Below are positions 9,033 through 55,662 of a DNA stretch of 64,000 nucleotides, one piece after another. Where the stretch lies: contig QPGO01000024.1 of NCBI GenBank assembly GCA_008632985.1, forward strand, positions 635,848 to 699,847, in the 5' to 3' direction. The position numbers were made by a program, and so were the translations under genes. Positions within the stretch are counted from its first letter, which is position 1; every line of letters begins with the position of its first letter. Source of the DNA: Psammoneis japonica (lineage: Eukaryota). Below the pieces are notes generated by a model, which ran no database searches, was not told where the DNA came from, and was given only the letters and a program-made list of their open reading frames with translations.

Positions 9033-12000
9033 TGTCCACATGCCACAATCTCAGCAGCAGCCCTTCAGAAACAGCTCCAGCATCTTGCTGTTGTTTGCTT
9101 GTCCCAGAGTGCACCCTTTCTGGATGGCACCTCAACAACACTCAGCTCTGGCAGCTGGCCAAAGTCTCCTTCAAAGAGCTTGGCAGTGGAGGGCTGTTTC
9201 TGACCTGCCAGAGGTGCTGTCCCACACACATGCTTGAAGGTTGTCTCTGGCGTGGAGGGAGCCTGTTGTGCAACTCCCAGAACACATGCACCCTTTCTGG
9301 TCTGTGCCTCCAGAATGTTCAACTCTGGCAGTCAGCACAGGCAATCTTCCTTGAGAGTTCTCCATCAACAAGCTTGTTGGGGGCTGTTCCTGACTTTTGC
9401 ATGTGTTGAGTGACTGATGTCAGAGGTGCCCTTCTGTGAATGTGCTTGAAGGTTGTCATCTCCAGAGGAAACCCATCACACAACTCACTCTTTTGGATGG
9501 AGCTGGGCTCTGCTGCACAGTGGCAAATGTGCAAGAAGCAAAAATTGCTTGCATCAAAAAATGACACACCCAGGCACCCAGGCATTTGGGTTGGTGGCAA
9601 ATGATGAAAATGCAGTTGTCAGGCCAGAGTTTGTTTGGCATCGTCAGCATTTGACAGCATGCTGTGTGTTTTCATGATGCACATTTTCTGCACTTCCACA
9701 GTTTTGGCACATGTCCAATGCCATTTTCCACTTCAATGCAAGCAGTGCTCCACATTTGCTCTCAAACCAATTTCTTCACCACTCCCCCCACCCCACCCCT
9801 GCAAAAGCAGTGCCAGTTTGGGTTGCCCAGGGCCCAAGCCCACCTTGGTGCACTTTTCCAGTGCTCTTGGCCTTGCTGGCACATCATCTCTGGCAAAGCA
9901 AAACAAACTGCAGTGTCAAATGCCAGAAAGTGAGTCCAAGTCCAAGTGGGCTCACATTGGGCAAGACAAGCTGACAGCAGCAGGGGTGAGAATGAGAAAT
10001 GAAAAGCTCTGCTTCCTCTTGGGGAAGTTCTGCCAGGGTGACACATTTGTGTGACCTCTGGAAGAGAGAAGAACAAAAGCAGCATCATCAACCACCAGCC
10101 ACAAATGCCAGTGCAATGTTGGGTGTTGGTGGTTTGGTGTTTTTTCCTCACAATCAGAAGAAAGGGTGGGATGTGGCACCAATCCTCCCTTGGCTCACTC
10201 TGACTCCACATGAACTGGAGACCAAAATTGCCAAGCCAGCACCTTGCAAAGAAAGATGAGGGTTGCTGTTGACTCAAGTCTCAAGTGCTTGGTGGTGTGT
10301 GGTGCATCGTCACTGCTGGGGTGCCTCCAGCACTTTGCAGCAAACTCACTCCCTTGCTGCTCTTTTGCTTGTTTTGTGCCATCAACTTTGAAGCCCCAAA
10401 CACAGCACCTTAAAAATGCCACCTTCACCCAAAGAAATTCCCTTTGGCCAACACTTTTCTGGCAAACCTCAGCAGTTTTTTTTTTGTTTTCATGGCCAAC
10501 AAGTCAATCTTGGGTCAATCAGCTGAGCCATCAATGATGTCCCCACTGCATCTTGAAATCCTCAATGGCAGAGCATTGTTGTCTTCCTCAATGGACAGTG
10601 ATGAAATTGAGCCATTGTTTGTGGTGGAGATGTTGGAATGTGCCAATTCCAAATCTTGCTTTGACTGTGTCTGCAAAGAATGTGATGGTGATGGCAAAGG
10701 TGATTGGTTCAGCAATGCTGTCTGCCTGCCAGAATGATTGCTGGTGTTGACTGAGACCATGTTGCTGGAGAATTCTGGCAACAAGTGCATGTGCTGTTGA
10801 CCTTGGAATTTGGTTTGTGCCAATGCAGTCAAGGTTCAGACTGCACTGGAGGATGAAGTCTGCCATTTGGAAGAAGAAGAAGAAGAAGGCGCCATTGTTG
10901 GTTGTGACTGCCATGTTGCAGGTTGTTGGAAGCTGTCAGTTGTGGGGACGCTCGTGATTTTTGTGCAAGCGTGCACACAGAAGAAGCGGCGTGCAGCACA
11001 TGTGCCTTGTTCATGCTGGTGGGAACATTTGGTTTTTTACACCATGCGATGGTTGCTCCCTCTGCACTCTTGGGTCTTCTGGGTTGAAGTTGGGAATCAT
11101 GAAAAAGTGCTGGTGCTTGATCACATGATCTGAAATGTTCTGACTGAATTGTTGAAGTTGTTTGCAGAACTGCCAAAGAAAAGCATCAAGGACCATCATC
11201 TGATGAGCATGATCAAATGAACAGGCACATTGTCCACATCACACACAAATGCGCTGGTGCATGAACAATGCAATGCTGGATGGCACAGGTGAGCTCAAAT
11301 GCGTTTGTGCATTTGCATGACACACCACATTGTGTCAATTGTGGCATTGCGGTTGTGTCAACAAGACAAGCCAATGACAACCCATTTGTCTCATTGGCTG
11401 CTCCAATCAACAAGGAGAGGAGGTCTGGACCATGGTGCCATGTCCAAATTTCAATGGAGGAATGAGGTGTGCCTCCAATCTGTGGCACATGTGTTTCTGT
11501 GTGGGGCACTGCATGGTTCTGATCAGATCAAGCAGCTCAAGGTCAGATTTAAAAGGTGATTTCTCAAAACTGTGGTTGCAAATGCAAGCAAATGAGGTTC
11601 TTTGGCTGAAGCCAACTCCATTGCCATGGAAGCAAGATTGGGGTTTGTGCCGCAGTGGATGGCAAATCATGCTGCCACAGTCAAGACAAGCACACACGCA
11701 ATTGATGCCAACAGCAAATGCCTTGGTGCAAATGACTGTCTCTGTCATTTCCCACAAAACACTGCAAAGTTCACATCCACTCTGCTGCTTAAAGCAGAGA
11801 AAGGGGAAGCTGCATTCAGGAAAAGACAGTGGCATGAGTCTTTCTTCTGTGTGAGCAAAACAAGCACCAAAGGGAGCAACAGCAATCAAGAGGAGCATTT
11901 TTCTTGGGACAATGCTTTGTGTCTTCTTTTGCTTGAGGCCGAGCATGAGAATTGGACTTTGCTCTGCCTTCTTCCTGGGTGCAACAATGCCAGTGCTTTC

Positions 12001-12635
12001 AACTGAGTGTTTGATTCATTCTTGTCTTGCAGCTCCTTCCACCCAACCGCTGCCACACACATCATGAATGATGCTTGGGCTCCTTCAACAAGTCATTTTG
12101 TCACAATCTGTGATGGACACAATGGGAACAACGAGAATCACTGTCAGCTGCAAAGCATGCAATCAACTGTGGACATTCAGCATCACAAGTCCAAGCCAGA
12201 GCTCCGTCGCCAACCACAACTTTGACCCAAACAGCGCCCAATTTGAAGAAGATGATGGCAACATGAGTCACCACAATGATGCTCAAAGCATGGCTCCCTG
12301 GCAAGGGAATTGCAACACAACCTTTGCCAATTGCAGTGCTGTGCATGTGTGGTGCCAGCTGTCCTTCAGATGCACACATTGCCAACAAGAGAAGTGCACA
12401 CACCCTCAGAGAACGTCTTCTTCTCACAAAAATCTTCTGAAGGGTGGCTGCTGATTTGGATGGATCCACACTGATGTCTTCAGGTCAACAACAGTTGTTT
12501 TAACAGTTGACGCCTGGACAGCAGCATGGTTTGGCAGTTCACACCATGTGCGGCTGCTGGCACACCCCAAAGAGCCCAATTTTTCAGAAGTTTGGCAGCA
12601 ACAACTCACAGAGAGGCAGAGGGGGAACAGACAGA

Positions 12636-12731
12636 TGGGGTGCAGATTCAGATTTCCATCCAAAATAGGTGCAGATCTTATGCAACCCCCTAAACACAGG
12701 TACAGATCCTTGCTGTAAATGGGTGCAGATG
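12636..12731 (+). repeat. Four short GGT(G/A)CAGAT repeats spaced ~22-31 bp at the right edge of island 1 (possible subterminal repeats)
   Basis: ggtgcagat three times and ggtacagat once within ~100 bp. Confidence 0.5.
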
Positions 12732-13076
12732 TTCTATGATGCTCAGGAAAGCTCAGGTTACCAGCAGCAGTTCTCATGCTCGCTCGCGATCGCGCTCATC
12801 AAGCAATCAGTCCGTCTGTCAGTCATTTTCTCTAACGTCGCGAGCGGGCGCAATCGTTTTGTCGCGCCAAAAAAATGAGCAAACTTTTTTCGCGTCTTGT
12901 GCGTGTGCGTGTGCTGGCATGTGGCATGGCATGTGCTAACCTTACACAAACACACAACGAACGCACGCGACGACAGGTGCTTACGATCGTTTCTGGAGTC
13001 CATCGCCTTGTCGCTCATCAGCACAGTCAGATCGCAGGAAATCAGTATTGCATATTGGTAAAGCGTCGAAAGAACC

Positions 13077-14242
13077 ATGCCTCCTACAAGTACCGAGAAC
13101 AGTAACGACGAGAACCTCGAGCCGGTCGCCAATAACCGAGGAATGGTAGATACTTCCTCGTCAGGCGCTACCGGTATTAACAAGCCATCCTTGCAAGACG
13201 CTGATACCAAGTATACTGTTTGTCGTTTTGAAATCAGTAGGCTTGAGGGCGGCCGTGGCTTGCCGAGAATGACTACCACATTGACCTTGTCGTATCGAAA
13301 CACGGACTCTTTGATATCGTCACGTCCGTGTTTGACGTGCTGCAGAAAGAGAATTTGACTCTCGATTCGTACTACAGCCATCTATGGTCGCTTCAGTTCA
13401 ACGACACCAAGTTCAACTATGGTTGGAGAGACTGCAGTGGGGCAGCGGTCAAGAACCACCTGGATCACAAAGAGCCGCATGTGCTGAACGGGCTCGCAAA
13501 ACATCTCCAAGACGGGCAGCAAGGATCCTTTTCAGGGGAATCTGCAACTTTTGATTTTGTAGTCAAGAGCGCTGCTTTTAAGGAAATCCGTACGAACCAA
13601 GTAGACGCTTATCCCAAGGTGACTGCCATCCCGAACGCCATTTCTTCGAAACTTGAAGATGATTGGATCTCCGACGAAAGGAAGGATCAGTGCCGCATCC
13701 TTCAGAAAAAGTGGCAGTCCTTTTATAAAAGCCCAAACGAATGGCGTAGAGACCGGACCTCTCTTGAATATGTTCTCAAGCTTCCCATTCGTCCAGAGTG
13801 GAGCGGCGACGAGTGTGAAATCATGGCCCTCTTGCTCAATGCAGGAAGCAAATTCAAAAAATCGTGGACAACTGTTCTGCAGTATGCCTTTTGCGATCGC
13901 GCCGAAACCGCTACATCCGGAGAATGGTACAAGCTGCAGCGAGAAAGCTATACTCGTGACCACTATGGACGATCCATGTCAAATGACGCCAAAATACAGT
14001 TGGCCAAGCGACTTGCCAGGGCTCGTGTCAACAAGTTACTAAAGCAGGGAGGTCCTCCCCAGGGTCCTCCACCTCATCCTTTTGTCAAGACGGAAACCGT
14101 GTTGCGCAAGCGTGGACTGATTACCGATGACATGGATGACAAGACAAAGAAACGTCAGCTTCGTATGTTTGAATGGGATGTGCGAGAGGGGCTATTCGAC
14201 AGCGGTGAGGAGGGCAGGAACGGCGGTGTTCGTATTCGTTAG
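13077..14242 (+). CDS. Hypothetical protein (intact member of a repeated family; main ORF 13328-14242, possible upstream exon from 13077)
   Basis: 304-aa ORF with normal TA/CG content; a homologous decayed fragment lies at 8761-9032. No family recognised. Confidence 0.55.
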
Positions 14243-14590: not shown

Positions 14591-15757
14591 TTATGGTGAG
14601 TCGCTGTGAATATTGCAGTCAAAACCAATGCTGTCTCCTATTCCAGCGGCGCAAAAGTGTGCTTTGATCCTGTCTATCAGTTCCATCGGTATGGCTGGCT
14701 CTCCGCTTCCAGTCCACGCCAGAATCTGAGCCAAAGGGAATTTTCTTAAAAAGTCGACAAAGGGCTGAACATTCTTTGACATTAGCCTCGCATTAATGGC
14801 AAGAACGAGTCCTATGAGAAAGGAGCGAAACGATACGAAGTGATGAGAGCACAAACCACAATGTCAGTTCTTACAGGAGGCCTCGAAATGAGTGTGATTC
14901 CTGTGTTTACCTGCCGACCGTTTCATAACATTGTACTTATTCACTATTGCGATCATTTGATCAAGATCGTCTTGCACAAACGCAGATTCGGAGCGATAAT
15001 CACATCTGTACCCCAAGGAAAAGGCGAACTGAAGACCTGGCTTAGTGTGCTTACACGCAGCAAGAAGCGGCATCAATGTGAATGATCCATTTTTCTAGAT
15101 CCACAATTGTGTGCATCAAACACGATTACTCACCTGTGAATCGATACACCGTAAGCAAGTTTGCATGAACGCGTCGGCTTCAATAGTGGCTTTCTCTCTG
15201 GAGCCCGGGCCGGGAAGCACGTCTGCGTTCAAGTACACAATTTTGCCACCCGGGCTTATTCTCATCGACGTTGCAATTTCCAAAGATTTCCCAACTGCTT
15301 CCAGTTCCTTAAAATCTAATTTGATGTGCTTTATTAGCGTGCGAGACGTGGTTGACGTGTTTCTTGGTGCAGCCATGTCAAAGAATTTTTCCATTGAAAG
15401 ATCACTTTCAATTGCCGGCGGGTGAGCGGCGATCGGAATCGTTAGTTTCTTGTTCAGAGCATATCCCATGAGAATATCTGTTTCAATGGCACTAATATCC
15501 TTGTCTTGTAACGCATTCGTTAACATTTGTATCGTCGTGGTAGAGTGCATCCACTTTTGATCTGCGGAAGGTAGCCGAGTGGCGTCGAAATCATCCCGCC
15601 CATCCTTCATTACTTCGATGTCCCTCTTTGGAAAAAATAAAGGAGCCTGTAATACAACAAAAGACCGATGACAAGACAAAACCAAATAAAGCATCAATAC
15701 AACAGAGTCGTCCTCAGCTACGGCAAGAATCGAAAGCTCGTTTCCTTCACGCTTCAC
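14591..15757 (-). CDS. Menorin/FAM151 (DUF2181)-like protein, paralog B, multi-exon
   Basis: WMHSTTT, AIETDILMG, AAHPP, KHIKLDFKE, YLNADVLPGPG; exons FAFSLGY (in ORF 14864-15076) and LVLAINARL...QILAWTG.GEP...IGFD (in ORF 14591-14854). Same exon pattern as paralog A. Start uncertain. Confidence 0.75.
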
Positions 15758-17051
15758 GGTCTTGCGTCAAGGGGTCTTGCTATTGGACGCGAATGAACTC
15801 TGCGCTCTGCGCACTCGGATCTCGGATCGTTCCCGACGCGACACCAATAAGCTAATTTTCGTTTTCTCGACACCTACTCTTGCGCGACAGATGGCTAATG
15901 AGACCATGCATATGATGCAGGATCACGCCATGTGAGATGTGAGATGTTGTGACATGGCGAACAGTTGTTTTTATTACAGAAGTTGCGTGCCTGATGGCGC
16001 CGTTTAGTTGTGCGGACTTTTTGAATATTTTGAAGTTGATTTTGGATTTTTTCATTTTTCGATCTATTCAACGTGGATCAAACAAGCAGACAAACACACC
16101 ACGCGATCAAACTGCCGGCTGTTGGAAAGCATTTTTCGGAGGTTGGACGGGACGGGCAGGTGGAATGGCTTCAACTTTCTTCTTCCAAGGCTTGAAGCCA
16201 GCAGGATTGAGCCATTGTCCAAGAAAATTGGCCTCTTGAACACATCATTTTTGCACTTCACAGAGGGCACACTTCTTGGTGGCTGGCCCTCGCAAGAGCC
16301 CACTCTCTCTTGTTGCAACAAGGGGCGCAAGACTTTCTAAAAACAAGACAACAGATGAAAACCAAAAGTGATGTCAAAAGGCTGGGCATCATTGTCACAA
16401 GTTTCAACATCCTAACTGTGCACAGTCTTTTCAACAGCAGCAGCTTGTGCACAACATCGTGAGCCTTCTTCGCTCTTGACCATGACATTTTTCATCAGCT
16501 GGGTCCAGCCAAATCTGTCTTTGCAGCACTCAGTTTGGGTTTTCACAGCTGTTGTTGAGTTTGTCCATCAAATCTGATGCCACATGCCAACTTTGTGACT
16601 TCCACCAGTGGGGATTGTCTCCATGGGGATGACACAATCTGGCCAACAAAAAGGCCTTGATTTGCAGTGCCGAGCTTTGGACCAACCTCTTGTGGAGGAA
16701 ATCTCAGCCCAACATCTGCACATCATCAAACAGAGGAGGAGCTCCAGTCCCATTGACTCATCAAAAGGTCTTGTCACACTCCAGCAAAGTCAAGTTGCTG
16801 AGCAAAGCTCTCCATCTGAAATGAAATGATGATTTGGCCAAAATTTTGAGAAGAATGAGTTCCTTGTGTTCCTCCTTGCCAAGCAAGGGGCTGTGCCTCA
16901 ATGTGACACTCCTTGGAACAGATCCTGGGCACACCAGCCCCCCTGGAGCAAAGCAACACCCATGTGCTGTTTGAGACAATTTGTGCTGTTGAGTCATGCA
17001 CACATGAGATTTGTGTGACAGCTGGGGCAGGCCATCCTTTTTTGCTGCCCC

Positions 17052-17105
<54 letters not shown>

Positions 17106-17108
17106 TGC
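17052..17108. repeat. (TGT)n-(TGC)n compound trinucleotide microsatellite
   Basis: tgttgttgt...ttgctgctgctg visible directly. Confidence 0.95.
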
Positions 17109-18339
17109 CACAGCCTTCAGAACAGACACTGGGACTGTCACAGGAGCAGAGCTGTGCCGTGCACTCCAAATGGCGTGGCAGTCAGCTGCAAGTGCAAAAC
17201 TGAAGTGCCGCAGTGCTGAACAATGTCAGTTGTGTTTGGGAAGCAACAAGGGTGGTGTGCAGGAGAAGAGCAAGTGCAGCTGCACAACCAACAAGTCACA
17301 TTGTGGCCTTGTTGTAGCTGATGCAGCTGAAACTGTGAAATGTGTTTGCACTGGGCTGACTTGAGAAAACAAAAAATGCAAAGGTTTGTGACTCATGAAT
17401 CTTGTTTCTCTGCAGCTCTGTTGTCTGTTGCTCTTGAGCCTTTTGCAGCATGCAACGACCCCCAATCAATCCTGTTCACACCTTCAGAAGCTCAAGCACC
17501 AATGGCCAATCTGACAGCTCATGCAGTCTGTGACCACCAATGTCAACAAGAGTTGCAAAATGGCAACCAAATGGACATTTCAGCCCGGGGATTCTGTCTG
17601 TGAACAAATGACAGACACTGCAGTGAACACAAGAGCTGCAAATGCAATGCAGCATCTTGTCTGATGAAAACTCTGGAACAGATCACAGCAGATTCACTGG
17701 AAGGAGAAGAAGCAGAAGTGCCTCAAGCCACATCTTGAACAACACCACCACTTTGCACCCATCCCAGTGGCATGGGTGCTGCGGCAGCTCAGTCAGAAAG
17801 GAGGCTCAAGAGCTGCCCTGCAATTGGTCACCTCTAAAATTTCTGACAAATGGCAAAAGCCACACTCAAAAGTTTGTGGATTCATCAGTGCAAGGTTTGG
17901 CATTGCTCCAGCAAGAGCAGCTCACTGTTGCATCAAGGGATTGCAAATTCCCTCTTCACAGATTAGCGCCAGACATTTCTGCAATGCACCAACTGCAAAG
18001 ACAGCCAAGTCAAGACAAACTGTCATTGCGTGTGAACAATGAAAAACCCATGCCAAGCACTGACAGCATCCCAAACCTGCTGCAGCATGAAGACAAAGCA
18101 CCAAAAATGATTCAAAGTCTGTGCATGATTGCTCTTTGCAAATTTCTTGTGTGCACAAAACCCAGTCCTGTGTTCATGTGCTCTCTCAACTGCACAAATC
18201 CTCCTTTTCTCTCTGCAAATGAGGGGTGAAAAACCACATCTCATCACCACTGCAACAGCTGGCATTTGGCATTTCTTTTCTTGGCAACCAAGCTGTGCCC
18301 CAAGGCAAGAAGGGCTGCTGCACCACTTGCAAGCAGTGC

Positions 18340-21000
18340 CACATCAAAATGACTGGCAATTGTGCAAGTGACTCTGGCAGCAAGTCTCTTTGCTTTGTGG
18401 ATGCTTGACTTGAACATGGGGCACACCATTGCCAACCAATTCAGCAACATGGGGGTGGAGTGAGTCAAGTGTTCATCAACCGAATCAAACAAGTGTGCCT
18501 TGTTTTTTGCCAGACAGTCATCAACTCTTGAGTGGATGGCCTTGACTTTTGCCTTGGTGTCACAACAATGAGAAGACTTCCTGGTTTCAGAGACATGGCC
18601 ATGAAAACAATGTCATTGCAACAATCCCACAATTTCCACCATTGGGACCAGATGTGTGAATCTGTTGCAGCTGGTTGAGCCACTGCCCAGTCCAATTGTT
18701 GCCAGCAGTGTTGCTGCCCTGATCTTGAGATCTGCTTTCTGCTGAACATGGCTGCTGAGCTTCACTTTGCCATGCAGAAAACCTGCCATTAAAGATGTGA
18801 TGCCACCCTGTTCCATCTTGAGAATGGAAGACAGCACAGATGCTGTGGCATGCTTTGTCAGAATGTGGTGGAAACTTTTCTTGAAACCAGCAGGACTCTG
18901 TCACACAACACCAAGTCACACGCAAAGAAGGAGAAGTGTCCACCTCATTGCACTTCCTTCTTGCACAAGCTCTGAAGGAAAGCTCAGCACCATTGTTCGT
19001 TGCAAGGGCAACCAAGAACATGATCCCTGTCTTCCACAGGAGACTGGCAATGAGTGCAACAGTCCAGGCAAATTGGACTGTGCCAGCAGATGATTTCATC
19101 AGTGGGCAAAAGATCTTGAACAAGTTTGACAGCTGTTTTGCATGAACCTGCCAGTTGATGGAATGCAAGATGGCATCAGACCATCCATGCTTGTCCTTCA
19201 TGCAGATGCAGAGTGCAAGAGCAGATGCTTCATGGTGCAGCACTGATGTGAACTTTGTCACAGAAGATTCATTTGCAAAACAAGACTTGCCACACAAGGA
19301 GGCAAGCATGGTGCCAGCTTCTTGTTTCCCAAGAAGGAACCATGGTGCCATCCTGCCAGGCAACCAGCTTGGACATTGCTCAACTGAGCCAGCACGGAGA
19401 GCAACTCATGTGGAACAATGTCTTCCTGGTGACTTTTTGTCCATGACGCCACCACTTGAGCACCGGCAAGGTCACCAACAGAGCACTCTGATCCATGTCC
19501 ATTGGAGTGAATGGAAAATTTCATGCAGCATGTCCCAATCAGAAGCCAGAGCATGTTTGCAATGTGACGTTGGTGTGCAAAGTCACTGTCTGGGTCTGGC
19601 AATGCCTTGTCATCTAAAAGGGGGCACAAAGTGAAAATTGGAAACACTGTGAACCAGAGAGGAGGAGTTGTTGCAAAACAATTCAACTTCCAATGGAAAG
19701 ACCATTTGAGAGTGCTCTGCAACTTGGAGAAGGAAGCAAAGAAACAACAACAATCTGTGAGCCTCAGCTTGGTCTGAGGATGGCCAAAAACCAAAAACCA
19801 AGACTGCACAATCAACCTGAGGAGGAGTGCCATTGATGGTCAAAGTCCAGCCAAAGAAAGTGTTAAAATCAAATCCAACAAAGAGCACAGCAGCCAAGGA
19901 ATGAAAAGAGGAGTTGGAACAATCCTGCACAGAGCACCACTTTGTGTTGAAAAAGGCTTGGCACAGGCGTGCTCTTTCTTCTTGACACAATTGGCTTGAG
20001 TGTGGACATCACTTCCAACCATGCCCAGATGACATGTTCTGGGTGTGGTTGGTGTTTTTGTTCTGCCAACTTCACTTTTTGTCATGCAAGCACATGGGCT
20101 GGCCTTCATTGCTTGCTTGGTCAAAATGATGGGCAACAGCAGCATGACCAGCCTGAGCAACACTTGCCACGAAGCTCAATCTTAACAAGAGATGAGCAAA
20201 CAATGCAGGACCCATTGGTGTGTTGCAGCTGGTGAGCCACTTCTTGATGAAAATGATTTTGCATGTGCAACAACATCTCAGTGATGTGCTCTCTCCTTCC
20301 TCCAGCAAAAATTGGACAAATTCCAGCACATTTGGAGCCATCATTGAATTCTTGAGTGTGCTTGTCATCTTTGAGCAACAAACAAAGGTTGAATGTTTGC
20401 TCAACACACACATGCTGGACTCCAGAAAGCAGCTTGGCAGATGCAACAAACAACAAATGTCTCTGGCAGCAATCAACAGGAGCAAAAAATGGCAAATGCT
20501 TCACAACAAAATGGGTTTTGACAAGATCAAGAATGTGCAGCAACTGGGTTGGGCCTGGCTGGCAACTCACCCTTGATCCAATTTTTCTTCTCTTTTCTTG
20601 TTGACCCAAGTTGCAAAAATGAGGGTGTCATTGCAACAAGGCAGAGCAAACACAAGCTGGTGCAACAATGAGAGCACAACTTTGTGAGCAAGAAGTGCCA
20701 AACGGTGGCTTGTGAAGACAACTTGACACTCTTCTCCTTGACAATTGTGCAAGGAACAAGGAGCCAAGAAGGAACTGCTGTCTGGGCACCACCCTTCTGC
20801 TGTGGCTCTCATGGCACACAATGTGTTGGTCAGGGTGTGCACATGTGGTGTGTCAGAGGAAGCACACACTGCTGACACATGAAGCACAAGTGGCCATTTT
20901 GTTCCAAGAGTCTTGCATTGCCAAGACAAACTTCACTCAAGAGACTTTGGAGAGTCTCCTCTCTCATAATTTTCAATCTGATTGCAGCAGCACCAGTGCC
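18340..21000 (-). mobile_element. 5'-truncated, decayed non-LTR retrotransposon (RNase H domain and C-terminal region)
   Basis: Minus-strand fragments FGW.L, PSSDQAEAHRLLLFLCFL (cf. PSSYRAEAYGLLSFLRFL), FCNNSS (cf. YCDN), WTKSHQED...LSVLAQL.NVQAGCLA (cf. W.K.HQD...LN..AD.LA), GWSDAILHSINW, HIFNGRFS, WWKLWDCCND (cf. LW..RN). Consensus motifs recalled from algal non-LTR elements, not from a search. Confidence 0.7.
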
Positions 21001-21557
21001 TTGAATCCACTGTGTGTTGACATGTGCCATTGTCTGCTGGCTGTGCTCTGCAGCCAGTCACACCCGCGCTTCGCGAATCATCACAATGCGTGAGGAAGGG
21101 TGGGGTCATCACCCCAGCTGGAGCCTTTTCATTTCTCTCCAGGCCCCAGAGAGGATTCTTATACTCTCCACCGGTGCGCTATGAGGCCCATTTCATTGTT
21201 CCTGCCCTCCCGCACTTTTGGATGCTGTGTGGCTCTTTCTGTGTCCGAGATTGCTGTCGCACTCATTTGCAAACTTTAAACCCTAGTTTGCATTCACCGC
21301 TACGTGCTTTAATAACACAGAGTCCATGGCTCAAGGAGAAAAGCTATTGACAGCACACTATCGTGTTGCAACACAAGAGCTCAATTGCTGATCTACGAAA
21401 CTAGTAACTACCTAATTTACGGTGTTGTATTTCGATCCCTGATGTGCTTCGCGTCAGTAACCTAGAACACTTGTATGCTTCTTGTAGAATGGCTATCAAG
21501 CGACTTTCATGGTAACGGTGTGTTCTCGACAATTAGTTTAGCATTCCGTTTGATCGC

Positions 21558-30449: not shown

Positions 30450-30895
30450 GGGCTAAGTGACCGGTACTCTACTCTCTAGTAGTTAGTAGCTCTAGCAGCA
30501 GCTCTACTCTCTACTAGAGAGAGTCGAGTACCAGGTTAGGTAGTCTTTAAAGTGTCGGCAGCGCAGACGGATCGGACAGATACCGTACGTAGATAAGATA
30601 GAATTAGTCTGAGAGCTCTACTAGAGTAGAGAGTAGAGTAGCCATAGCGCTACGCTACTCTCTCTCTACTCTAGAGTAGTACCGGTAGAGAGAGGAGAGT
30701 AGCTACTCCAGCTAGCTCTACTCTCTAGCTATAGCGTAGTAGGGCTAGCTAGCTAGGCTAGCTACTAGTAGATAGCTACTCTCTCGTCTCTCGCGTCGCG
30801 CGCTCTATCTTATCTATTAGATAGATCTATCTATCGGTAGATTATCACGTCTTGCATTCCATCCAGCCATTATGATACCTCTCTCTCTACTTGCT
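30450..30895. repeat. TA/CG-rich, TG/CA-poor low-complexity tract (CTAG/TAGAG/CTACT motifs) upstream of the FCP gene
   Basis: 30601-30840 has dozens of TA but only 1 TG and 2 CA (counted by eye). Confidence 0.85.
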
Positions 30896-31094
30896 ACAAA
30901 AAGGAGAGCGAGACCTCGAGGTAGGAAGCAACACTCCTTGAACTCGTATCTTGCTACGTAAACTTTCTACCTGCAACTCTGGTACATGAAATTCGCGACA
31001 CGCATTTTGAATCAAAGGATCTTCTCTGACGAGCCTCCGCCTCTCAATGCTCTCACTCTTTGAACGTACCAAGCAGTCGTAACAAGAAGTAACA

Positions 31095-31718
31095 ATGAAG
31101 CTCGCCGTCGCCGCCCTCCTCATCAGCTCTGCTGCCGCCTTCGCCCCTGCCCAGAACGGACGGGCTTCCACCACCCTCAATGTCAACGAGCTCGAGCTTG
31201 GAGTCACTGAACCCCTAGGTGTGTTTGATCCCCTCGGATGGCTCGAGACCGAGCCCCAGGCCTTCGAACGTCGTCGTGCCGTTGAGCGTAAGCACGGACG
31301 TGTCGCAATGGCTGCCGTTGTTGGAGTCATCGTGCACAACAACCACATTGTCTTCGATGGATACCTCTCCCCCTCCAACAACCTCAAGTTCTCCGATGTT
31401 CCCACCGGCATTGACGGAATCCGCGCAATCCCCACCGCCGGACTTGCCCAGATCCTTGCTTTCTTCGCCCTTGTCGAGCTCGCCTGGATGCCTGCCTCCA
31501 AGTACGACGGAGACTATGGTGTTGGTTACTTCGGTACCGATATTGAGGACCCCGAAGAGAAGGCCCGCAAGCTTAATGTCGAGCTCAACAACGGCCGTGC
31601 TGCTATGATGGGTATCATGGGTAACATGGTTGCTGAGGTTCTCACCGGACAAACCATGTACGAGCAATACGCCGATGGACACATCTCCCCCTTCGGTGAT
31701 GGACAGGGTGTCTTCTAA
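31095..31718 (+). CDS. Lhcf: Fucoxanthin-chlorophyll a/c binding protein (Lhcf; FCP-A-like), copy 1
   Basis: Signal peptide plus AF-AP plastid motif, FDPLG, ERKHGRVAMAA, ELNNGRAAMMG. Closely resembles the Chaetoceros PSII FCP-A sequence as I recall it. Confidence 0.97.
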   Translation: MKLAVAALLISSAAAFAPAQNGRASTTLNVNELELGVTEPLGVFDPLGWLETEPQAFERRRAVERKHGRVAMAAVVGVIVHNNHIVFDGYLSPSNNLKFSDVPTGIDGIRAIPTAGLAQILAFFALVELAWMPASKYDGDYGVGYFGTDIEDPEEKARKLNVELNNGRAAMMGIMGNMVAEVLTGQTMYEQYADGHISPFGDGQGVF

Positions 31719-32059
31719 GATGTGACCTTTCGCAAGTCATGAAACTATGCTACGTCTGCAGTTTGGGTGAACAATGAGCGCTTCTTCCATTGCGAGTAGA
31801 CTTTTTACAATAGAGATTCTTAGCAAGGACAACAGTTGTTTTCAGCTATACATAGCAGGTCATTATGTTTGTGTAGAGAATGTCTATGTTTGCCATGGCA
31901 TGTTCTTATTACTTATCTTGCGGGCATCCCAACCCCAAACATTCATCCTTGATCTATCAACTATCAACCTTCAAAACTGATTCGAAATGAGGGACGACGC
32001 TGGCAGCTAAAGACATTTTGGCGATGATTCGAGACGCCAAAAAAGGGATTTTTGGCGTC

Positions 32060-35000
32060 ACAATCAAACAGGTTTGTGGCGTTTGTGGTGCCACTACAGC
32101 GCGATTTGCGTTGCATGCACACACGACATCCACATAGATGGGTGCGGTGCGTCCGTGTGTCTAACAAATGACAAGGATTCGCCTTCTTATGTAGAAAAAG
32201 CAGGTAGAGGCAGGACCAACGTTCTGCCGTCGCTCAGAAGCTCAAGCTTTTTCGGACATGTGCAAACAGATGCTTTCGCAATGCTTTGTTTCAGATCATC
32301 TTGATTGAGTTGTTCCTGGAAGCAGCTTGAACAACGAGCATTGCATCCACAAGCGCTTGCTGAGCTCTTGTCATTCCAGCCTCGCTGCCATGCAATGCTG
32401 CCGTGGAAAGCTCCTTTCGGTTTCCCAACACCGTCGTGCTGTGCAGGCAAACCTGTCGCCCAGTGGCAACCATCATGCCTTTGCAGTCGGCATGCTCTTC
32501 TGTCACAGAGAGTGATGATCAAATGGAAACGACTGGAACAGCAATCAACCCAGAAGAACGTTTGGATAATTTGGCTGAATCTTCGCTGTGATTTTTGATG
32601 ATGCCTGTGTGCACGCAGTTTTCTTCACTTTCTTTTGGTTCAAGCTCGGCTTCCTGGCATCAGCCTTGAGGGGTTGAATCTTTGGCATCGTGTCTCCGAT
32701 GTAAATTTCATCATGGATGAATGCCCCATGTTCTTTGCCTTTCACCACTTTTGTGCTGTTCACTGTTCACACAGGTGCTGCTGCCATTGATGACTTGAAT
32801 GGCACAGAGTTGCTTGGTGGCAGCAAGAACAAGCTTGACACGAGAAGCCTCCAAGTCGGAATCATTTGTCAAGACGAATCATGCGGTCCTTTGGATGCCA
32901 AAAGAAGGATGCTGCATTCGGAAGCCGAGGCAGCATCACTTGAAGGGGCACGTTGGGTCTCAAGTGCTTGATGGCACATGGTGCAGGTCGCCATTGGGGC
33001 ATTTCCAGTGCTCTGAGATGAACTTTTGATCTTCAAACGGGACTTCCTCATCACTCTTTTTGCCCTTCACGCCATCAACCTTGAAGCCTCGAATGTGCTC
33101 TGCCCAGCAAGAACCAGCTTCACCCAAGAACTCCCCCTTCATCAATGAAAATGCGTCTCGGGTGAATCTTGGCAGTTTTGTTTCCTTCTCGCGATTGATG
33201 ATTTTGGATCGATCCCAGTGCGCCTGAACCATCTTGGCTGATTTCTTCTAAAGGGCGGCCAGTTTGGATGGATCCGTGCTGACAACTCCAGGTGAGCAAT
33301 GGTTGTTTCAGGATTTGACACTTGAACAGTGCTGCACGTCATGGTGCGATGCCATCTTCCATCAAGTTTTTGGAAGATTGGTGCTGACGTCCCCAGTCTG
33401 CGGGGAAAAGAAAAAGAATTTGCAACAGACCGCTCCACTGCAGCAGCAACAATGGTGGCACTCTCTCCACTGGCTGGCACTGCATGCAAGACGAGAGACG
33501 AGGCTCATCACACTTTGCACAGTCGAAACTCGCCTTGGCTTCATCTTCAGCAATGAGGCGATGAGCGATGAGAAAAGTGATGGGAAGCAGAGCAGACTCT
33601 GCTGCTCTGCTAGATGTGACAGAGGGGAGCAAGCCTCTGCAAGGTCCGATGCTTTTTTTGCGAGGTCCAATGCATTTTTAAAAAAAGCAATTGAACCTCA
33701 TGCAGTGCAGCAGGCAAAAAAGAAAGCACAACACAAGAGCATCAATGCAATGTGCACAACATTGTGGTTGTGACATCCATCCATCCCAGCCCAAAGCCTC
33801 AAATGTTTCCATTGCATCCTGCCCTTCTCCACCTGGAAGTCAATGTGCCACTTCGTCACTCGCAGGCACGCACGTGCGGCAATGGTTGCCCATTTCACTT
33901 GTGTCACATCGGCGGGAAGTTTTGGCTCTCGGAACCCAAGCAACGGCCCCTCTCTGGTGATGTGAAGAGCAGAAGACCCACAATTGTGATGATGTGGTGT
34001 GTTTCAAGATGTTTCACTGCTGCAAACAGCTCTGTGAGACACTCGTTGACCTTGCTGAGAATGCCGGCAGCTTTGTGTTGATCGGAGCTTGGCAGAGTGT
34101 TGTGTCTTTTTCAAGACAGACCAACAGTGAGTCAGCACAAGGTGCACAAGCCACATTTGGTGGACGGAAACTCAAGCAGAATGACTTGGATTGAAAGATG
34201 TTCCTGTGTGTGCGTGTCGATGCAACTGGCATTGTAACTCCATTTTCGATGATGAGATGCGGATGCATGGCATGATTCATGGGCAAATCACTGTCGTCAC
34301 ATCATCACGTGAATCGAAAGAGATTCCATGTGAGGTGAGTCATTAAACTCTCACACACTGCATTTTCTCTGCATTTTGGGAATGACCATTTCTTGCTGTT
34401 GCCAGTGTCAGCACGCGAAAGCCAGGTTGCTGCCAAATGGATTCGTTGTTGCTTCGCCAAGACTCCAGAGATCGAGCTCGCATCTTTGGAAGTTTCAGCG
34501 GGGGCGGCAGCGGCGATGTTGCAAACAATTGGATGCAATCCATTCAAAATGGAGCAGGAGGCAGCAACAAGCAGCAATGCAGTGCATTGACACAACACCA
34601 GCCATGCCAGTGTAGACATTGCACATGTGACGGGGTTGACTCACAAGTCAATTTTGGTGCTCGTTCTGCAAAATCTGGTGCAGACGAGAAATTCAGTCCA
34701 AACCTCATTGTCTTGACCAATGCACTGCTGTCTCCATGGGGGAGAGTCGTTTGGGCGGGATGCAAAGTTGCAGCACCCAAGAATCAAAACGAGTGGAGAA
34801 CCCAAATTGAAAAGACACAATCTGGACCATGCGGCAGTGGCGGCACAGTCTGCACTGCTGGATTGCCAGGCAAGTGCTGCAAAGTTGCGTCGAACATTTG
34901 CAGGAGTGCACAGCAGAAGATTGACTTTTGAATGTCGTGTTCAACAGCAGCACTTGTGTGGTTGGCTCTGTGGGCAGTCTTTCATGACACACCCGCTGTG

Positions 35001-35440
35001 GCCCGGACACGATCTCACACGGACAAACGAAGGAAGGAGCAGCAATCCATTTTCCAATGGCAACCCCGCTGAAACGCACTTTCAATGATGAAGCCTGGTT
35101 GGATTGCATGCTGAATGTCACACAGCATGCATGGTGGAACTTCTTCGAGAAAGACAAGGACCCCCCTGCCACACACCAAATGTCTTGTTGGAACTCCCAC
35201 TGCTCCCTCGCAACCGGCTGCTTCAGTTTCTCTCCATCCTCCTCACCTCTTTGCAGCAGCAGCAGCAAAGAGGTGCAACAAAGGCTGCATTGCAATCTGT
35301 TGCGGCATCCCGACACTGCCACAGGGATTGTTCTTGCTCGTTTTCGTGCCTGTTCTCATGATGGATTCCTCCAACCGCGAATGAACATTCACATGACATT
35401 TGAAAAGAAAAACACAAAAACCTTTTTTTTCTCTTCTAAG
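32060..35440. mobile_element. Island 3: TpA-depleted but partly CpG-retaining repeat island bounded by hairpins
   Basis: 33241-33600 has 1 TA versus 13 CG (counted by eye). Hairpin at 32033-32059 and palindrome at 35454-35481 lie at the edges. No family recognised. Confidence 0.7.
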
Positions 35441-35453
35441 AAGTCGGGTGAGT

Positions 35454-35481
35454 CGTACCGGCGCGGCGCCGCGCCGGTACG
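35454..35481. repeat. Perfect 28-bp GC-rich palindrome
   Basis: cgtaccggcgcggcgccgcgccggtacg equals its own reverse complement. Confidence 0.95.
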
Positions 35482-41055: not shown

Positions 41056-43512
41056 AAAGGATGGGTCGGTGCTGACAGCATCACCCACAGCAACAATGCT
41101 TGTGGATGGTACGGTGTTTTCAGTCAGAGCGTTGTGCTTAATTGTGAATGAGTTCTCGAATTGTTTCTATATGATGTTTTCCGACAAGGAGGTCTTGAAA
41201 GATACACGTCGAGTTTTGGAGGTTTCAAAGGCAAGCGATTTCGTGATAGGGACACCATGCTTCCGAGTAGGAAGCGATGATGCCGACAAGAGAGCCGGAA
41301 CGAGGAGAAGCAACAACTGAAACAAGTTCATCATGGTGGCTAGTGACATCGACGAGCGCGAATGATATGGGCAGCGTGTCTCTTATGAAGAGTCGCTCTG
41401 CTATCATCAGGATTCTTACAAGTATTCCATTTTTCCTGTCGTGGCGCCAGAACACCAATCACAGACTAAGTGGCGGGTATTGATGCATGCACGTATTCCA
41501 ACAATGAGAGCATGGCATAGTGAACAAAATGCCGTTCATCCAAAGCTTGTCACGACTAACCAGGTGGTCAACATCGCACCACTTCGCTGTTCTGACATGT
41601 GCCCTGCCCTTTTTCCAACCGCCCGGTGCATTGTTCTGCAGTAACTAGCGTTGAGACAAAGACTGAGAATACCATACGTGTAGTAGGTTACTTGCCGACA
41701 CTAAAGGTCGTGGCGGTTTTACGTGCGGCATACAGAGGTTTTGTGCTTAGGTCTGGACAGCAGCAACTTCCTTGCCAAGAGTTTCCTTGACGATCCTCAT
41801 GGATGGACGTTCGGAAGCCTTCTCGGACCAACCGCGCAAAATGAGATCGCGAATCGCCTGTGGCCACGACTCATCCACCTTTGTTGTCAAGGCTTTCTCG
41901 GCGATCAGATGATCATTGAATGGAGTCGTGGGAGGAAGGAGGGGCTAGTGGATCGATCTGTCTACTGGGACTGCAGGCTTCGTTGGGTTTGGGATGTTAG
42001 AGGGTATTAAGATCCGGCGTGTGACGAGACGAGAGATGAGAGTGGCGTCGAGTGAAGGCAATGCCGGATTGAGCTTGCACGGGGCTTGGCCCGAGGTCGT
42101 CGCTGTGTTTCGACGTCTCTGCTCATTTTGAATCTTGCAAGTTGCGCTTCGCTCAAGTATCCGTTGCTTCTGCGGCTGCTCGAATCAAAAACCAAAGCAA
42201 CGAGTACACCTCTGCCCTCTGCCGTGTTGAGTGTTGACAGCGCCTGCCGCGAAGAGTATGACCTGGAATACTGTAATCCATTTTCATGACGTTGGTTATG
42301 TTCTTGCCGGCGCTATTCATCGAAAGCGTGAGCTGGAGTTCAGCGCGATTAGACCTGTCACCATCATTAAAAATACTACCCTACCGTGTCAAAGGCGATC
42401 ACAATTTTTTTCCGGCTACGCTACGGCCACTGCAACACTTCTACTACTTGTAGCAGGGAAGTTCCATTTAGACATGACACCGTGTAAGAAATCTTCGGAG
42501 CCACAAATGTGCTATCCACGATGGTCTATTATTGGCACAGGAAACATCCGACACCAACGTTACTGGTTTATGCAAGACTCAAACATGACCACCAGTACGG
42601 GTACTACTTGCAAGGTAGGCAACGCTTTCCGACCATCACAATCGCTTCTTCATGCTTTTCAACCCAGGTCAGCAACACCTTTTCAGAAATCACTTTTACT
42701 CCATCAATATCGGCGGAAGCGAGAACCGCTCTCATGAACATGCCAAAATGAGCTTCCACAACGGTGCAGCTAGCGGTGGAATGCATTTGTTTGCGCTCTC
42801 CTCGGACGTTGTGGGGTATTGACCTTTCTTACCTCCCGAAACAATCATGCATTGGCTCGTTCAAGATTTGAGACGTGCCACTTCTCCGACGATGCGACGA
42901 TTGTATCCTTGGATTGTCGCCCATTTTCATCGTCCGTCCAACTCTTCTTGGGGAGATCCAGAAAAGATTCCAAACCTTTTGATGCCTTCGAGGAATTGTT
43001 CCACAAGTATCAGGTGGATGTGCTTTTTGCGGGACAGGTGCACAATGTGGAATTGACAACGCCCGTCTTGTTCAAGCTGCTAATCCCTCCAACTATTAAC
43101 CCACGTCGTACTTTGAGGTACATGTTTGGTCATGCTACAATGGCGGTTGGGCCTGCCACCAAGGGGATGACGAGATTATTACGATTGAATTTGCACATTC
43201 CCCAACGCGAGAAGTACGTAGCTCATCGTGTCGCTCTGGTCAAGCCCAACAAGCGGACACCGACAAGAGAACAACAAACGTGAATACGGAGACCTCGCAT
43301 TTGCGAAATCAATTCTTGCGGGAGTTACGACCAGCCGGAACAGTTATAGTATCTGAGAATGAATTTTGGATATCCGTTCGTCCAGTGTACCTTGAGCACA
43401 AGTTGCTGCGCCCCGACAAATCTACGACACACTGGGAGGGCCTTCCTGGCTACAAAGCAAAGGATGGGTCGGTGCTGACAGCATCACCCACAGCAACAAT
43501 GCTTGTGGATGG
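41056..43512 (+). repeat. Identical 54-bp direct repeat at 41056-41109 and 43459-43512
   Basis: aaaggatgggtcggtgctgacagcatcacccacagcaacaatgcttgtggatgg occurs at both positions. Confidence 0.9.
42500..43100 (+). pseudogene. Fragmented purple acid phosphatase (metallophosphoesterase) remnant
   Basis: WLVQDLRRA....R..YPWIVAHFHRP and FEELFHKYQVDVLFAGQVHNVE.T.PV lie in different frames; the metal-binding GHXH is altered to GQVH. Confidence 0.65.
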
Positions 43513-44811: not shown

Positions 44812-45263
44812 AGACCGTCCATAGCAAGAAGAAGACGAGGCTCATCACGATACTCTGACTCTAATACTCTCCCGTCAAGAGAGCTACTCGTTCTCAAGAC
44901 TAGTCGTCACCTTTTTGCAGATAGGGCGCAAAATCTACTCAAGAATAAAGTTTGTGGAAGTCCAAGACCGTCCATAGCAAGAAGAAGACGAGGCTCATCA
45001 CGACTCTGACTCTAATACTCTCCCGTCAAGAGAGCTACTCGTTCTCAAGACTAGTCGTCACCTTTTTGCAGATAGGGCGCAAAATCTACTCAAGAATAAA
45101 GTTTGTGGAAGTCCAAGACCGTCCGCCATAGCAAGAAGAAGACGAGGCTCATCACGACTCTGACTCTAATACTCTCCCGTCAAGAGAGCTACTCGGTCTC
45201 AAGACTAGTCGTCACCTTTTTGCAGATAGGGCGCAAAATCTACTCAAGAATAAAGTTTGTGGA
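44812..45263. repeat. Three near-identical tandem copies of a ~152-bp unit
   Basis: Units start at 44812, 44965 and 45116 (agaccgtcc...agtttgtgga). Confidence 0.95.
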
Positions 45264-48283: not shown

Positions 48284-48718
48284 CAACTTCAGGTGATACC
48301 CTACCAGTTCATAGACAAGCACCGTATTATTTCTAATCGATAACGCCCTTCTTAAGGTTAACTCGGCTTTCCTATACGATCTAAGCCTCCTCAACTTCAG
48401 GTGATACCCTACCAGTTCATACCGTAGACAAGCACCGTACTATTTCTAATCGATAACGCCCTTCTTCAGGTTAACTCGGCTTTCCTATACGATCTAAGCC
48501 TCCTCAACTTAAGGTGATACCCTACCAGTTCATAGACAAGCACCATATTATATCTAATCGATAACGCCCTTCTTTAGGTTAACTCGGCTTTCCTATGATC
48601 TAAGCTTCCTCAACCTCAGGTGATACCCTACCAGTTCATAGACAAGCACCATATTATTTCTAATCGAAAACGCCCTGCTTAAGGTTAACTCGGCTTTCCC
48701 ATACGATCTAAGCCTCCT
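48284..48718. repeat. Four tandem copies of a ~108-bp unit overlapping the stop codon and 3' flank of the minus-strand gene
   Basis: Units start at 48284, 48392, 48505 and 48611 (caacttcaggtgatacc...ctaagcctcct). Confidence 0.95.
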
Positions 48719-49277
48719 CTTCTTCTTCAGCAGAAGAGGCAATGAAGCACTTGGCGATGAATTCGGCCTCCTCCTGACGGGCAGCAGCAGCTTGCATCTT
48801 CTTCAATTGCTTCCTACGGCTCAAACCACGCCTACCACCAGTAGAGAATTTACGCATGTTTTCTCTGTTGCGCTTAATCTTTTCTTTCTTGGCATTGACA
48901 CGGCATCCGTAAAGGGAGGTCGCCGTCCTGGTCACTCCAAATGAAGCCATGGGAGCAAATGCCTGCGGCGAAACATCGCGACGACAAAAAGCCGGAAGTT
49001 AGATTTCCTGATGAGGAATGTTTTAGTAATGGCAGATTGGTACACCCTTGTAGGTAACAAGACGAAGTATAAACGACAAAGGCTCGGTCAAGACTTGATG
49101 GCAGCTAATGAACTCGACGGCGAAGAACAGCGACTACTAGAGGACAGAACTGCCACATCGCAATTGAACACCCTGCATTGAAACTACTTCAATACCATCG
49201 ATAAAGGCCTAACTTACTTCGATGGAAAGAGCCATAAAGGCAAAAACCGTAATAAGAAGGAGACTACGAGCCGTCAT
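48708..49277 (-). CDS. Small basic, probably plastid-targeted protein of unknown function (intron ~48963-49217)
   Basis: MTARSLLLITVFAFMALSIE|AFAP signal/transit pattern across a GT-AG intron; K/R-rich mature part. Confidence 0.7.
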
Positions 49278-54228: not shown

Positions 54229-54629
54229 GGCGAGAGCACCGCAATTCGTGCGTTGTGTTTAGTTGAAGATGCGAGATGGGTCGATGTCGATGCTGTGATG
54301 GCAAGCATGTACCTTCATGGCATATAGCGATTAGCGATGCATGCTGTGGATGCATGGGAAACTTCAAACTGATGAAATCGCACGTCCATCAACCGGCAGA
54401 GCTAGGCTCTCACTCGCTCTGATCTCGTCGCCATACGCTACGGTACCAACGACTTTGTTGAAAATATCAAGTCAGAAGCGTACGGACAGTGAGAAAGCTA
54501 CTACCGGTAGTAGTGAGACAAGTAAGAATCAGAAAAAGTTCGTGATCAAGAAACTTTAACATTAACGTCGAGCCTTTCGTCGCCACTCAGTTAAATATCC
54601 AGCAAGAAATGCTCTCACAGGAAAGCTTC

Positions 54630-55253
54630 TTAGAAGACACCCTGTCCATCACCGAAGGGGGAGATGTGTCCATCGGCGTATTGCTCGTACATGGTTTGTC
54701 CGGTGAGAACCTCAGCAACCATGTTACCCATGATACCCATCATAGCAGCACGGCCGTTGTTGAGCTCGACATTAAGCTTGCGGGCCTTCTCTTCGGGGTC
54801 CTCAATATCGGTACCGAAGTAACCAACACCATAGTCTCCGTCGTACTTGGAGGCAGGCATCCAGGCGAGCTCGACAAGGGCGAAGAAAGCAAGGATCTGG
54901 GCAAGTCCGGCGGTGGGGATTGCGCGGATTCCGTCAATGCCGGTGGGAACATCGGAGAACTTGAGGTTGTTGGAGGGGGAGAGGTATCCATCGAAGACAA
55001 TGTGGTTGTTGTGCACGATGACTCCAACAACGGCAGCCATTGCGACACGTCCGTGCTTACGCTCGACGGCACGACGACGTTCGAAGGCCTGGGGCTCGGT
55101 CTCGAGCCATCCGAGGGGATCAAACACACCTAGGGGTTCAGTGACTCCAAGCTCGAGCTCGTTGACATTGAGGGTGGTGGAAGCCCGTCCGTTCTGGGCA
55201 GGGGCGAAGGCGGCAGCAGAGCTGATGAGGAGGGCGGCGACGGCGAGCTTCAT
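54630..55253 (-). CDS. Lhcf: Fucoxanthin-chlorophyll a/c binding protein (Lhcf; FCP-A-like), copy 2
   Basis: Encodes the same 207-aa protein as 31095-31718; ATG at 55253. Confidence 0.97.
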   Translation of the reverse strand: MKLAVAALLISSAAAFAPAQNGRASTTLNVNELELGVTEPLGVFDPLGWLETEPQAFERRRAVERKHGRVAMAAVVGVIVHNNHIVFDGYLSPSNNLKFSDVPTGIDGIRAIPTAGLAQILAFFALVELAWMPASKYDGDYGVGYFGTDIEDPEEKARKLNVELNNGRAAMMGIMGNMVAEVLTGQTMYEQYADGHISPFGDGQGVF

Positions 55254-55662
55254 GGTTGCTAGTTTTCGATTCGAGCAGAAAGTAAAAAGCAGATTGGTGA
55301 ACGGAGCATTGTACACCGCGGTGAAAGATACGTGGAGCTTCGGTAGTTGAACTACGTGTACAGAGGATTCAGTACGTTTGCCGTTGGATTCGGAGGATAC
55401 TTCAACTTGCGCGTGTGCGCGAAAAACAACGCGCATTGAGATGCCCACATCCAATGGCCAGAGCGACAGACACACTGACACGGAAAGCGAGAGAGGCCGC
55501 CATCAAGCGACAAGCGACAACATCGAAGCAACAAGCAACAAAAACAACGACAATAAGGCAACAATACAGCAGCCCAAGAGCCAAACACCATTTACCCTGG
55601 CTGTACGGAAACAACTCATAAGGCATCGATACGGGATCAGAGATAAATCAACTGCTAAAAGA

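Follow-up and report, generated by a model that had tools for sequence, protein, structure and literature searches.

Analysis of a gene-dense stretch of eukaryotic DNA from the diatom Psammoneis japonica (assembly GCA_008632985.1, contig QPGO01000024.1, positions 635,848–699,847; 64,000 nt in all, hereafter the window and numbered from its first letter) reveals four sharply bounded islands in which the dinucleotide TpA (TA) has been brought down to a common floor, while CpG (CG) has been lost to very different degrees. The clearest case is island 3 (I3, residing at 32206–35436), from which approximately 93% of TA, vs. only approximately 40% of CG, is missing relative to the background formed by the rest of the window. 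The data support the conclusion that the two losses are decoupled, that of TpA being the faster. The changes are of a definite type and direction, from CG and TA to TG and CA; they are confined to the islands, and they were acquired independently by different copies of the same sequence.

The four islands, none of which is assigned to a strand, are I1 (5700–12666; observed/expected ratio (o/e) of TA 0.05 and of CG 0.20), I2 (16065–21160; 0.03 and 0.12), I3 (0.04, corresponding to 9 TA, and 0.55, corresponding to 110 CG) and I4 (59586–61679; 0.07 and 0.09), vs. 0.62 and 0.99 in the rest of the window. I1 and I2 have lost both dinucleotides, as an earlier note on this DNA had claimed, and I4 behaves like these two. 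CA and TG are enriched in the islands (o/e 1.6–1.9, with 1.6–1.7 in I3, vs. 1.12–1.16 in the background), and since both are enriched to an equal degree the process is strand-symmetric; G+C content is the same in islands and background (0.47–0.50 throughout). The losses of TA and CG share the same islands and the same borders, and no window with low CG and normal TA was found outside them. The word SGCCAAAAA, considered as a border motif, is not enriched (4 matches vs. 2.07 expected; 11 of 100 shuffles reach 4).

The segment 33241–33600 of I3, on which the earlier note had based its argument, contains exactly the 1 TA (at 33249, in CTAA) and the 13 CG reported for it. Background windows of 360 bp (n = 1414, outside the islands) hold 15.3 TA on average and never less than 3, so that none has one or fewer, and their median CG count is 20 (5–95%: 13–29), whereas the 96 windows of this length inside I3 hold on average 1.0 TA (maximum 2) and 12.0 CG (7–17). 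The TA-poor zone described in the note is real, but its start at 32060 was set about 145 bp too early, the interval 32095–32205 holding six TA; the zone starts just past the TA at 32205 and ends at the TA at 35437. Over its whole length I3 carries 9 TA vs. about 205 expected, and 110 CG vs. about 199 expected (2000 shuffles, base composition). Its share of the 55 TAs found in all islands is the one expected by length (p = 0.86), whereas its share of the 234 island CGs is far above the 18.6% expected on the same basis (p = 4e-23). The fractions of CG and TA left, with respect to background, are 0.60 and 0.07 in I3, 0.20 and 0.08 in I1, 0.12 and 0.05 in I2, and 0.08 and 0.11 in I4. In other words, the TA floor of about 2–5 per kb is the same in all four islands, and the CG retention of 8–60% spans an approximately 7-fold range. 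Assuming first-order decay, the ratio of TA to CG loss rates in I3 is at least 5, this being a lower bound since the TA figure is a floor. Thus, the proposal of the note that TA removal is no by-product of CpG decay and saturates first is borne out.

At 4–12 per 250 bp, the residual CG of I3 is evenly spread, and the bases around it do not differ in context from those in the background (p = 0.28). In I1, CG forms a mosaic, with 5–10 per 250 bp in the region of about 6950–8700 and 0–1 in that of about 8700–10950, TA being near zero in both; the sub-block 6950–8700 may represent a second, smaller instance of the I3 state, unless pieces that differ in their history have been joined here. The earlier note had also taken I3 to be younger and at an intermediate stage. 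The intermediate CG loss stands; a younger age is only weakly suggested, by a gene remnant that is better preserved than its I1 counterpart, and lower CpG methylation in I3 would explain the same data, so that the reading of I3 as a younger insertion is not supported. Approximately 17 bp to the right of I3, at 35454–35481, there is a G+C-rich palindrome of 28 nt, perfect in sequence and with many CG and TA.

The islands are not assembly artefacts, since an independent set of contigs, built from a public run (X1, which may be the sample behind the assembly itself), reproduces them at a contig mean depth of 54–62, equal to the depth in the flanks. These contigs run across the two borders of I2 and, in I3, across the left one; the right border of I3 is unbridged among the contigs listed, the pieces stopping at 35261 and restarting at 35487, around the palindrome. 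In I2 with its flank, one letter differs from the window over 1.0 kb and 19 over 8.3 kb, vs. 0, 10 and 8 in three I3 pieces. Such differences are denser in I2 than outside the islands (15 in about 4.6 kb vs. 8 in about 10 kb, p = 0.001), an excess that relaxed constraint fits equally well. Of the eight differences outside the islands, three change the A of a TA to C (24076, 26158 and 28371, in CTAC, GTAC and GTAA, respectively) and could be due to allelic variation or to a systematic error of one data set. A second set of contigs (X2), spliced and RNA-like, gives no cover in the I2 bins 16668–21336, though contigs cannot show absence, and the letters that it provides at the listed I3 places all come from other copies.

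Transitions at TA and CG sites

In every island the gain in CA and TG equals the loss of TA and CG. Indeed, the density of CA+TG per kb and the value predicted from background plus lost TA and lost CG are 224.6 and 226.0 in I1, 230.8 and 231.9 in I2, 205.4 and 204.1 in I3, and 224.5 and 231.3 in I4. This balance rejects a very CG-rich start of I3, the case that the earlier note had itself named as fatal to its reading: the value predicted for I3 is that of a background-like start, whereas a very CG-rich one would, by our own arithmetic, give roughly 260 per kb.

The type of change can be read directly from a pair of paralogs lying 4.8 kb apart. The I1 fragment at 8761–9032 (272 bp, + strand), with 1 CG and 1 TA, is 81% identical to an unmutated sequence of normal composition at 13609–13868 (+ strand), which carries 14 CG and 5 TA and is part of the open frame 13247–14242. 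The 260 aligned positions include 39 mismatches, 18 of which are found on CG or TA sites of the outside copy; all but one of these 18 are transitions (12 of 13 at CG, 5 of 5 at TA). A protein-atlas look-up of the open reading frame (ORF) 13247–14239 returned only sub-threshold leads, the best of which scored 0.85, and only a minority of the members carried Myb-like families. Comparison of I3 segments with other genomic copies present among the read contigs points in the same direction: among the 15 differences listed, seven are a TA (four) or a CG (three) where I3 has TG or CA, and the reverse pattern occurs once.

I1 and I3 can also be compared with each other, as they share two collinear blocks containing runs of 27–33 nt that are identical in purine/pyrimidine space and 62–76% identical as nucleotides. 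The first, at 10274–10404 of I1 (− strand), is the counterpart of the kinase block of I3 described below and matches 32953–33097 exactly in purine/pyrimidine space in runs of 29–33 nt; the second, at 12434–12774 (− strand), is the counterpart of the upstream region 33242–33432 of I3. The 290 aligned positions comprise 176 identities, 87 transitions and 27 transversions. Among 57 aligned pyrimidine-purine steps there are 23 swaps between TG and CA and 26 equal steps; with about half of the shared steps swapped, I1 and I3 must have been converted independently. CG is kept in I3 where I1 has TG or CA five times, and the reverse is seen once. Taken together, these comparisons show that the losses are CG>TG/CA and TA>TG/CA transitions, and the footprint is mutational rather than a native composition. 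We also looked for strand-coordinated patches: at a scale of 100–200 bp, TG vs. CA is over-dispersed in I1 and I4, not in I2 and I3, and is so in the background too (p = 6e-7), so that this analysis yields no signal.

The 55 TAs surviving in the islands are not a random sample of contexts. Compared with the background, TTAA is found 5.1 times, CTAA 2.7 times and GTAA 1.8 times as often as expected, and ATAC and GTAC are absent; the bias is significant vs. background contexts (p = 1.7e-11) as well as vs. TAs newly made from TG or CA (p = 9e-6). In a multiplicative model the order of removal is TAC and TAT, then TAG, then TAA. TAA is thus spared among the survivors, and TA before a pyrimidine is the one removed best. 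If the TA floor reflects a balance between creation and removal, TpA removal would, as a rough estimate, proceed at about 75 times the ordinary rate of the transitions that create TA.

Decayed kinase-like gene and island content

A decayed gene resembling protein kinases was recognised in I3, the N-terminal block of which (glycine loop and lysine region) is located at 32978–33283 on the − strand (tblastn with protein P0002: 48% over 104 aa, E = 4e-21). The read-through frame of this putative pseudogene (P0001; 32189–33232, − strand) comprises 348 codons with 9 in-frame TGA, and a frameshift near 32978 was read by eye; all island frames are interrupted by TGA. A phmmer search with P0001 against a library of 1.84 billion representatives matched three proteins (2.8e-14, 4.9e-9 and 1.4e-6). 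The Pfam scores for Pkinase remain below the 31.7-bit cut-off (20.5 for P0002, 17.8 for P0003), and P0001 itself matches no family. The ORF of L002, a relative from a metagenome, has two exons, the second of which carries kinase catalytic-loop and activation-segment motifs as judged by eye, and the loci of the metagenome relatives have a normal TA o/e of 0.4–1.0. Where the relatives read YAIKYL, a neighbouring frame of I3 reads CAIKHL, the replacement of Tyr by Cys and His being exactly what TA>TG/CA predicts. No tblastn match to the kinase C-lobe was found in I3, and the I1 counterpart was found by short tblastx and purine/pyrimidine matches only. On the basis of these matches, I3 is a defunct copy of a kinase-like gene that exists in several copies, and another copy of this unit, in more advanced decay, lies in I1.

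The description of the islands as transposable element (TE) copies or insertions, also put forward in the earlier note, is not supported. When the four islands with flanks (about 18.6 kb) were scanned in six read-through frames, they gave no Pfam family at E ≤ 0.01, and no reverse transcriptase, integrase, transposase or capsid domain in particular, although heavy decay may hide domains; no pair of long terminal repeats or terminal inverted repeats flanks any of the four islands; and what I3 holds is the kinase-like gene. Parts of I3 are multicopy, with up to 5 X1 contigs over 32345–32445 and with the two blocks shared by I1 and I3, which a multigene family explains equally well. Word-indexed searches with P0001, with a 272-aa ORF of I2 and with a 229-aa ORF of I4 gave no match at E ≤ 0.01 among proteins of near length. 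I2 also contains a trinucleotide run at 17042–17118, which reads as poly-Cys and poly-Leu/Ala/Val in three frames and was skipped as a repeat in the placement of the reads. Outside the islands, in DNA of normal composition, an exact 54-nt direct repeat (41056–41109 and 43459–43512, 2.4 kb apart) resembles in its first 25 nt or so the conserved I1/I3 upstream block (33254–33329), and an exon resembling a kinase C-terminus is located near this repeat (41747–41944, − strand).

Candidate processes and known systems

In our view the islands are probably the product of two separate, context-specific transition processes, acting on sharply bounded regions of dead, duplicated DNA. The first would convert TpA to TpG or CpA (A:T>G:C) and proceed to the floor of about 2–5 TA per kb in all islands; its likeliest chemistry would be deamination of adenine in DNA by an enzyme resembling TadA or ADAT, with a mutagenic modification at TpA as the alternative. 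TadA-type enzymes prefer UAC. The preference for TAC and TAT derived from the survivors fits this and is best regarded as a lead for the enzyme, not as a test. The second process would convert CpG to TpG or CpA, most likely by deamination of 5-methylcytosine (5mC) in methylated silent DNA, and would be slower or more variable. I3 would then represent a state in which the first process is complete and the second about 40% done, silent duplicated DNA being the presumed target of both. What we infer in this scheme is which enzymes act, that the target is silent, what triggers the processes and how old I3 is relative to the other islands.

The first process has the same signature as a hypermutation recently described in the chlorarachniophyte Bigelowiella natans by Mettrop et al. 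(bioRxiv, April 2026; 10.64898/2026.01.13.699255). According to this preprint, mutation in two viral regions, integrated and silent, is about 1000-fold faster in mutation-accumulation lines than elsewhere in the genome; 230 of 231 hypermutations are A>G or T>C, all of them at TpA, with 1 of another type; the genome contains 124 clusters of TpA-poor windows rich in CpA+TpG; and an ADAT2-like DNA adenine deaminase is proposed (10.64898/2026.01.13.699255). Neither of the words CpG and diatom appears in its text. When the cluster rule of the preprint, which sets thresholds for consecutive 1-kb windows, is applied here, I1, I2 and I3 are recovered with 7, 5 and 3 consecutive windows, respectively, and I4 has only 2. 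The two systems have in common TpA>TpG/CpA transitions (in the islands, at 5 of 5 paralog TA sites, in the CA+TG balance of all four islands and at the 4 TA of other copies where I3 has TG or CA), strand symmetry, confinement to regions and, in the long term, low TpA with high CpA+TpG; many of the targets reported from B. natans are likewise unannotated. On the other hand, TA is saturated here (o/e 0.03–0.07), whereas the preprint gives 0.45 for a nucleocytoplasmic large DNA virus (NCLDV) region; the hypermutation described there is TpA-only, whereas CpG is lost here too (fraction left 0.08–0.60), be it through the same process or a second one; and the host is a rhizarian there, with de novo rates, and a stramenopile diatom here, with a footprint known from sequence alone. 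We consider as the best reading that the phenomenon belongs with this newly described TpA hypermutation, from which it differs in host lineage, apparent target, saturation and paired erasure of CpG.

Three observations weigh against the scheme of two processes akin to that of B. natans. First, the counts of TA and CG left in the islands show a weak correlation (Spearman 0.38, p = 0.036, for 31 windows of 500 bp), so that the two losses are not fully independent and one enzyme with two rates would fit equally well. Second, pyrimidine-purine interconversions account for 8 of the 15 differences between window and X1 in I2, vs. approximately 32% by chance (p = 0.07), so that ongoing activity is unsupported. 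Third, the targets described in the preprint are viral or TE-like, whereas those found here are a kinase-like pseudogene and a local gene fragment, and the scans found no viral or TE domain.

The weak correlation, together with the fact that both losses affect exactly the same islands with shared borders, would also be accounted for by one process of dual specificity, in which a single deaminase complex acts on the A of TpA and on the C of CpG, faster at TpA, I3 having been less exposed in time or intensity. The preprint cites an ADAT2 from amphioxus for which editing of A as well as of C in DNA has been reported (10.64898/2026.01.13.699255). However, nearly all hypermutations described in B. 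natans are of the TpA type, and CG retention varies among the islands and within I1 while TA is at one floor everywhere. We regard a single process as rather unlikely, though as a serious rival. Two processes with an I3 as old as the other islands and merely less CpG-methylated, so that only CpG decay lags, would agree with a residual CG that is uniform and in background context, as a uniformly lower rate predicts, and nothing dates the island; but the I3 remnant is still recognisable by tblastn and its I1 counterpart only by short and purine/pyrimidine matches, which hints that I1 is more decayed, and we consider this reading improbable.

It is very improbable that the islands are foreign or mobile DNA that lacked TA and CG, through selection or editing at an RNA stage, before their arrival. 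The sharp borders and the several genomic copies of I3 parts, up to five contigs at one place, would agree with such an intrinsic composition. However, a host paralog without the mutations exists for one island fragment at a distance of 4.8 kb, the approximately 47% of TG/CA swaps at pyrimidine-purine steps shared by I1 and I3 argue against inheritance of a common converted state, the mobile-element and capsid domains listed above are missing from the six-frame scans, and there is no strand asymmetry while all frames are broken by TGA. Modified bases cause transition-like miscalls in some long-read data, and X1 may come from the same sample as the assembly; nevertheless, base-calling or polishing errors that turned CG and TA into TG or CA are scarcely credible, given that the independently built contigs reproduce the islands with few differing letters and that the gene remnant also has frameshifts and transversions.

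Among the other known systems, fungal repeat-induced point mutation (RIP) likewise represents a regional, transition-only mutagenesis that destroys duplicated DNA. However, RIP consists of C>T changes, mainly at CpA, and creates TpA, whereas here TpA is destroyed and CpA and TpG are gained, and the outside paralog at 13609–13868 is untouched, though its approximately 270 bp may be below a length threshold. The TpA o/e of 0.03–0.07, the CpA/TpG o/e of 1.6–1.9 and the unchanged G+C do not fit RIP. DNMT4 enzymes, which are related to RID, the enzyme of RIP, are found in many centric diatoms, and CG methylation of silent DNA in diatoms is, in Phaeodactylum, DNMT5a-dependent (PMC9998398). CpG decay by 5mC deamination agrees with CG>TG/CA transitions limited to affected regions, as seen at 12 of the 13 changed CG sites of the paralog pair, but it cannot remove TpA, and I3 shows the two losses at different stages. 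Hyperediting by ADAR or APOBEC resembles the present pattern in its clustered transitions and, for ADAR, in A>G changes with a preference for 5′ U/T, whereas it leaves a strand bias and needs a retro-copy; here CA equals TG and the Pfam scans contain no reverse transcriptase. A search of the open literature, including Chaetoceros genome papers and with subscription journals outside its scope, found no report of a TA-stripped pattern in diatoms.

As a broader and clearly more tentative possibility, diatoms might possess a region-targeted DNA adenine editing, a mirror of fungal RIP, which would act on silent duplicates of any origin and erase every TpA, CpG decay following. Its end product would be DNA without self-complementary pyrimidine-purine steps, and its targets here would be copies of host-type genes rather than viruses or transposons; the sparing of TAA and removal of TAC and TAT would be the footprint on DNA of a TadA/ADAT-like enzyme. 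Occurrence in both Rhizaria and stramenopiles, if true, would point to an old genome defence of the SAR lineage (stramenopiles, alveolates and Rhizaria).

The first report of a hypermutation that hits only TpA in silent DNA dates from 2026 and concerns one chlorarachniophyte; the present islands would be its saturated footprint in a diatom, in dead host-like gene copies, with I3 as a natural time-point that separates TpA hypermutation from CpG decay. In the silent DNA of algae, a low CpG content is not necessarily the earliest or the principal mutational mark. If the phenomenon is general, diatom annotation needs a class of TA-free pseudogenes, TA o/e vs. CG o/e could serve as a two-clock tool for dating silent DNA, and the context bias of the survivors gives a concrete biochemical prediction for the enzyme.

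Neighbouring genes and repeats

The genes flanking the islands are ordinary ones (subtilase, kinase, chorismate synthase, enoyl reductase, TAP42 and others). The gene at 31095–31715 encodes a fucoxanthin-chlorophyll a/c protein (FCP), the product of which matches PDB chain 6j3y_11 over all 207 residues (E = 2e-127), an entry from Chaetoceros gracilis; on this basis the analysis treated the DNA as that of a centric diatom resembling Chaetoceros. This gene is present in near-identical inverted copies of 633 nt, at 31088–31720 and 54628–55260, with 22.9 kb between them; the copies are 100% complementary by repeat search and 99.5% by blastn, which suggests a recent duplication or gene conversion. 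Just upstream of it, the stretch 30480–30840 (361 bp) is TA-rich, with a bias opposite to that of the islands (TA o/e 2.22, TG 0.08, CA 0.38); it is made of words of the CTAG/TAGAG/CTCT type (11 CTAG, 34 TAG), and several X1 contigs have loose ends inside it, at 30621–30658.

Two paralogs with a Menorin domain (4481–5302 and 15119–15766, both on the − strand; 36% identity over 160 aa) lie one directly to the left of I1 and the other directly to the left of I2, an arrangement that hints at an old segmental duplication that may have taken in the later islands. Tandem arrays are found at 44812–45263 (3 copies of about 151–154 nt) and 48284–48725 (4 copies of about 106–113 nt), with 79–99% identity.

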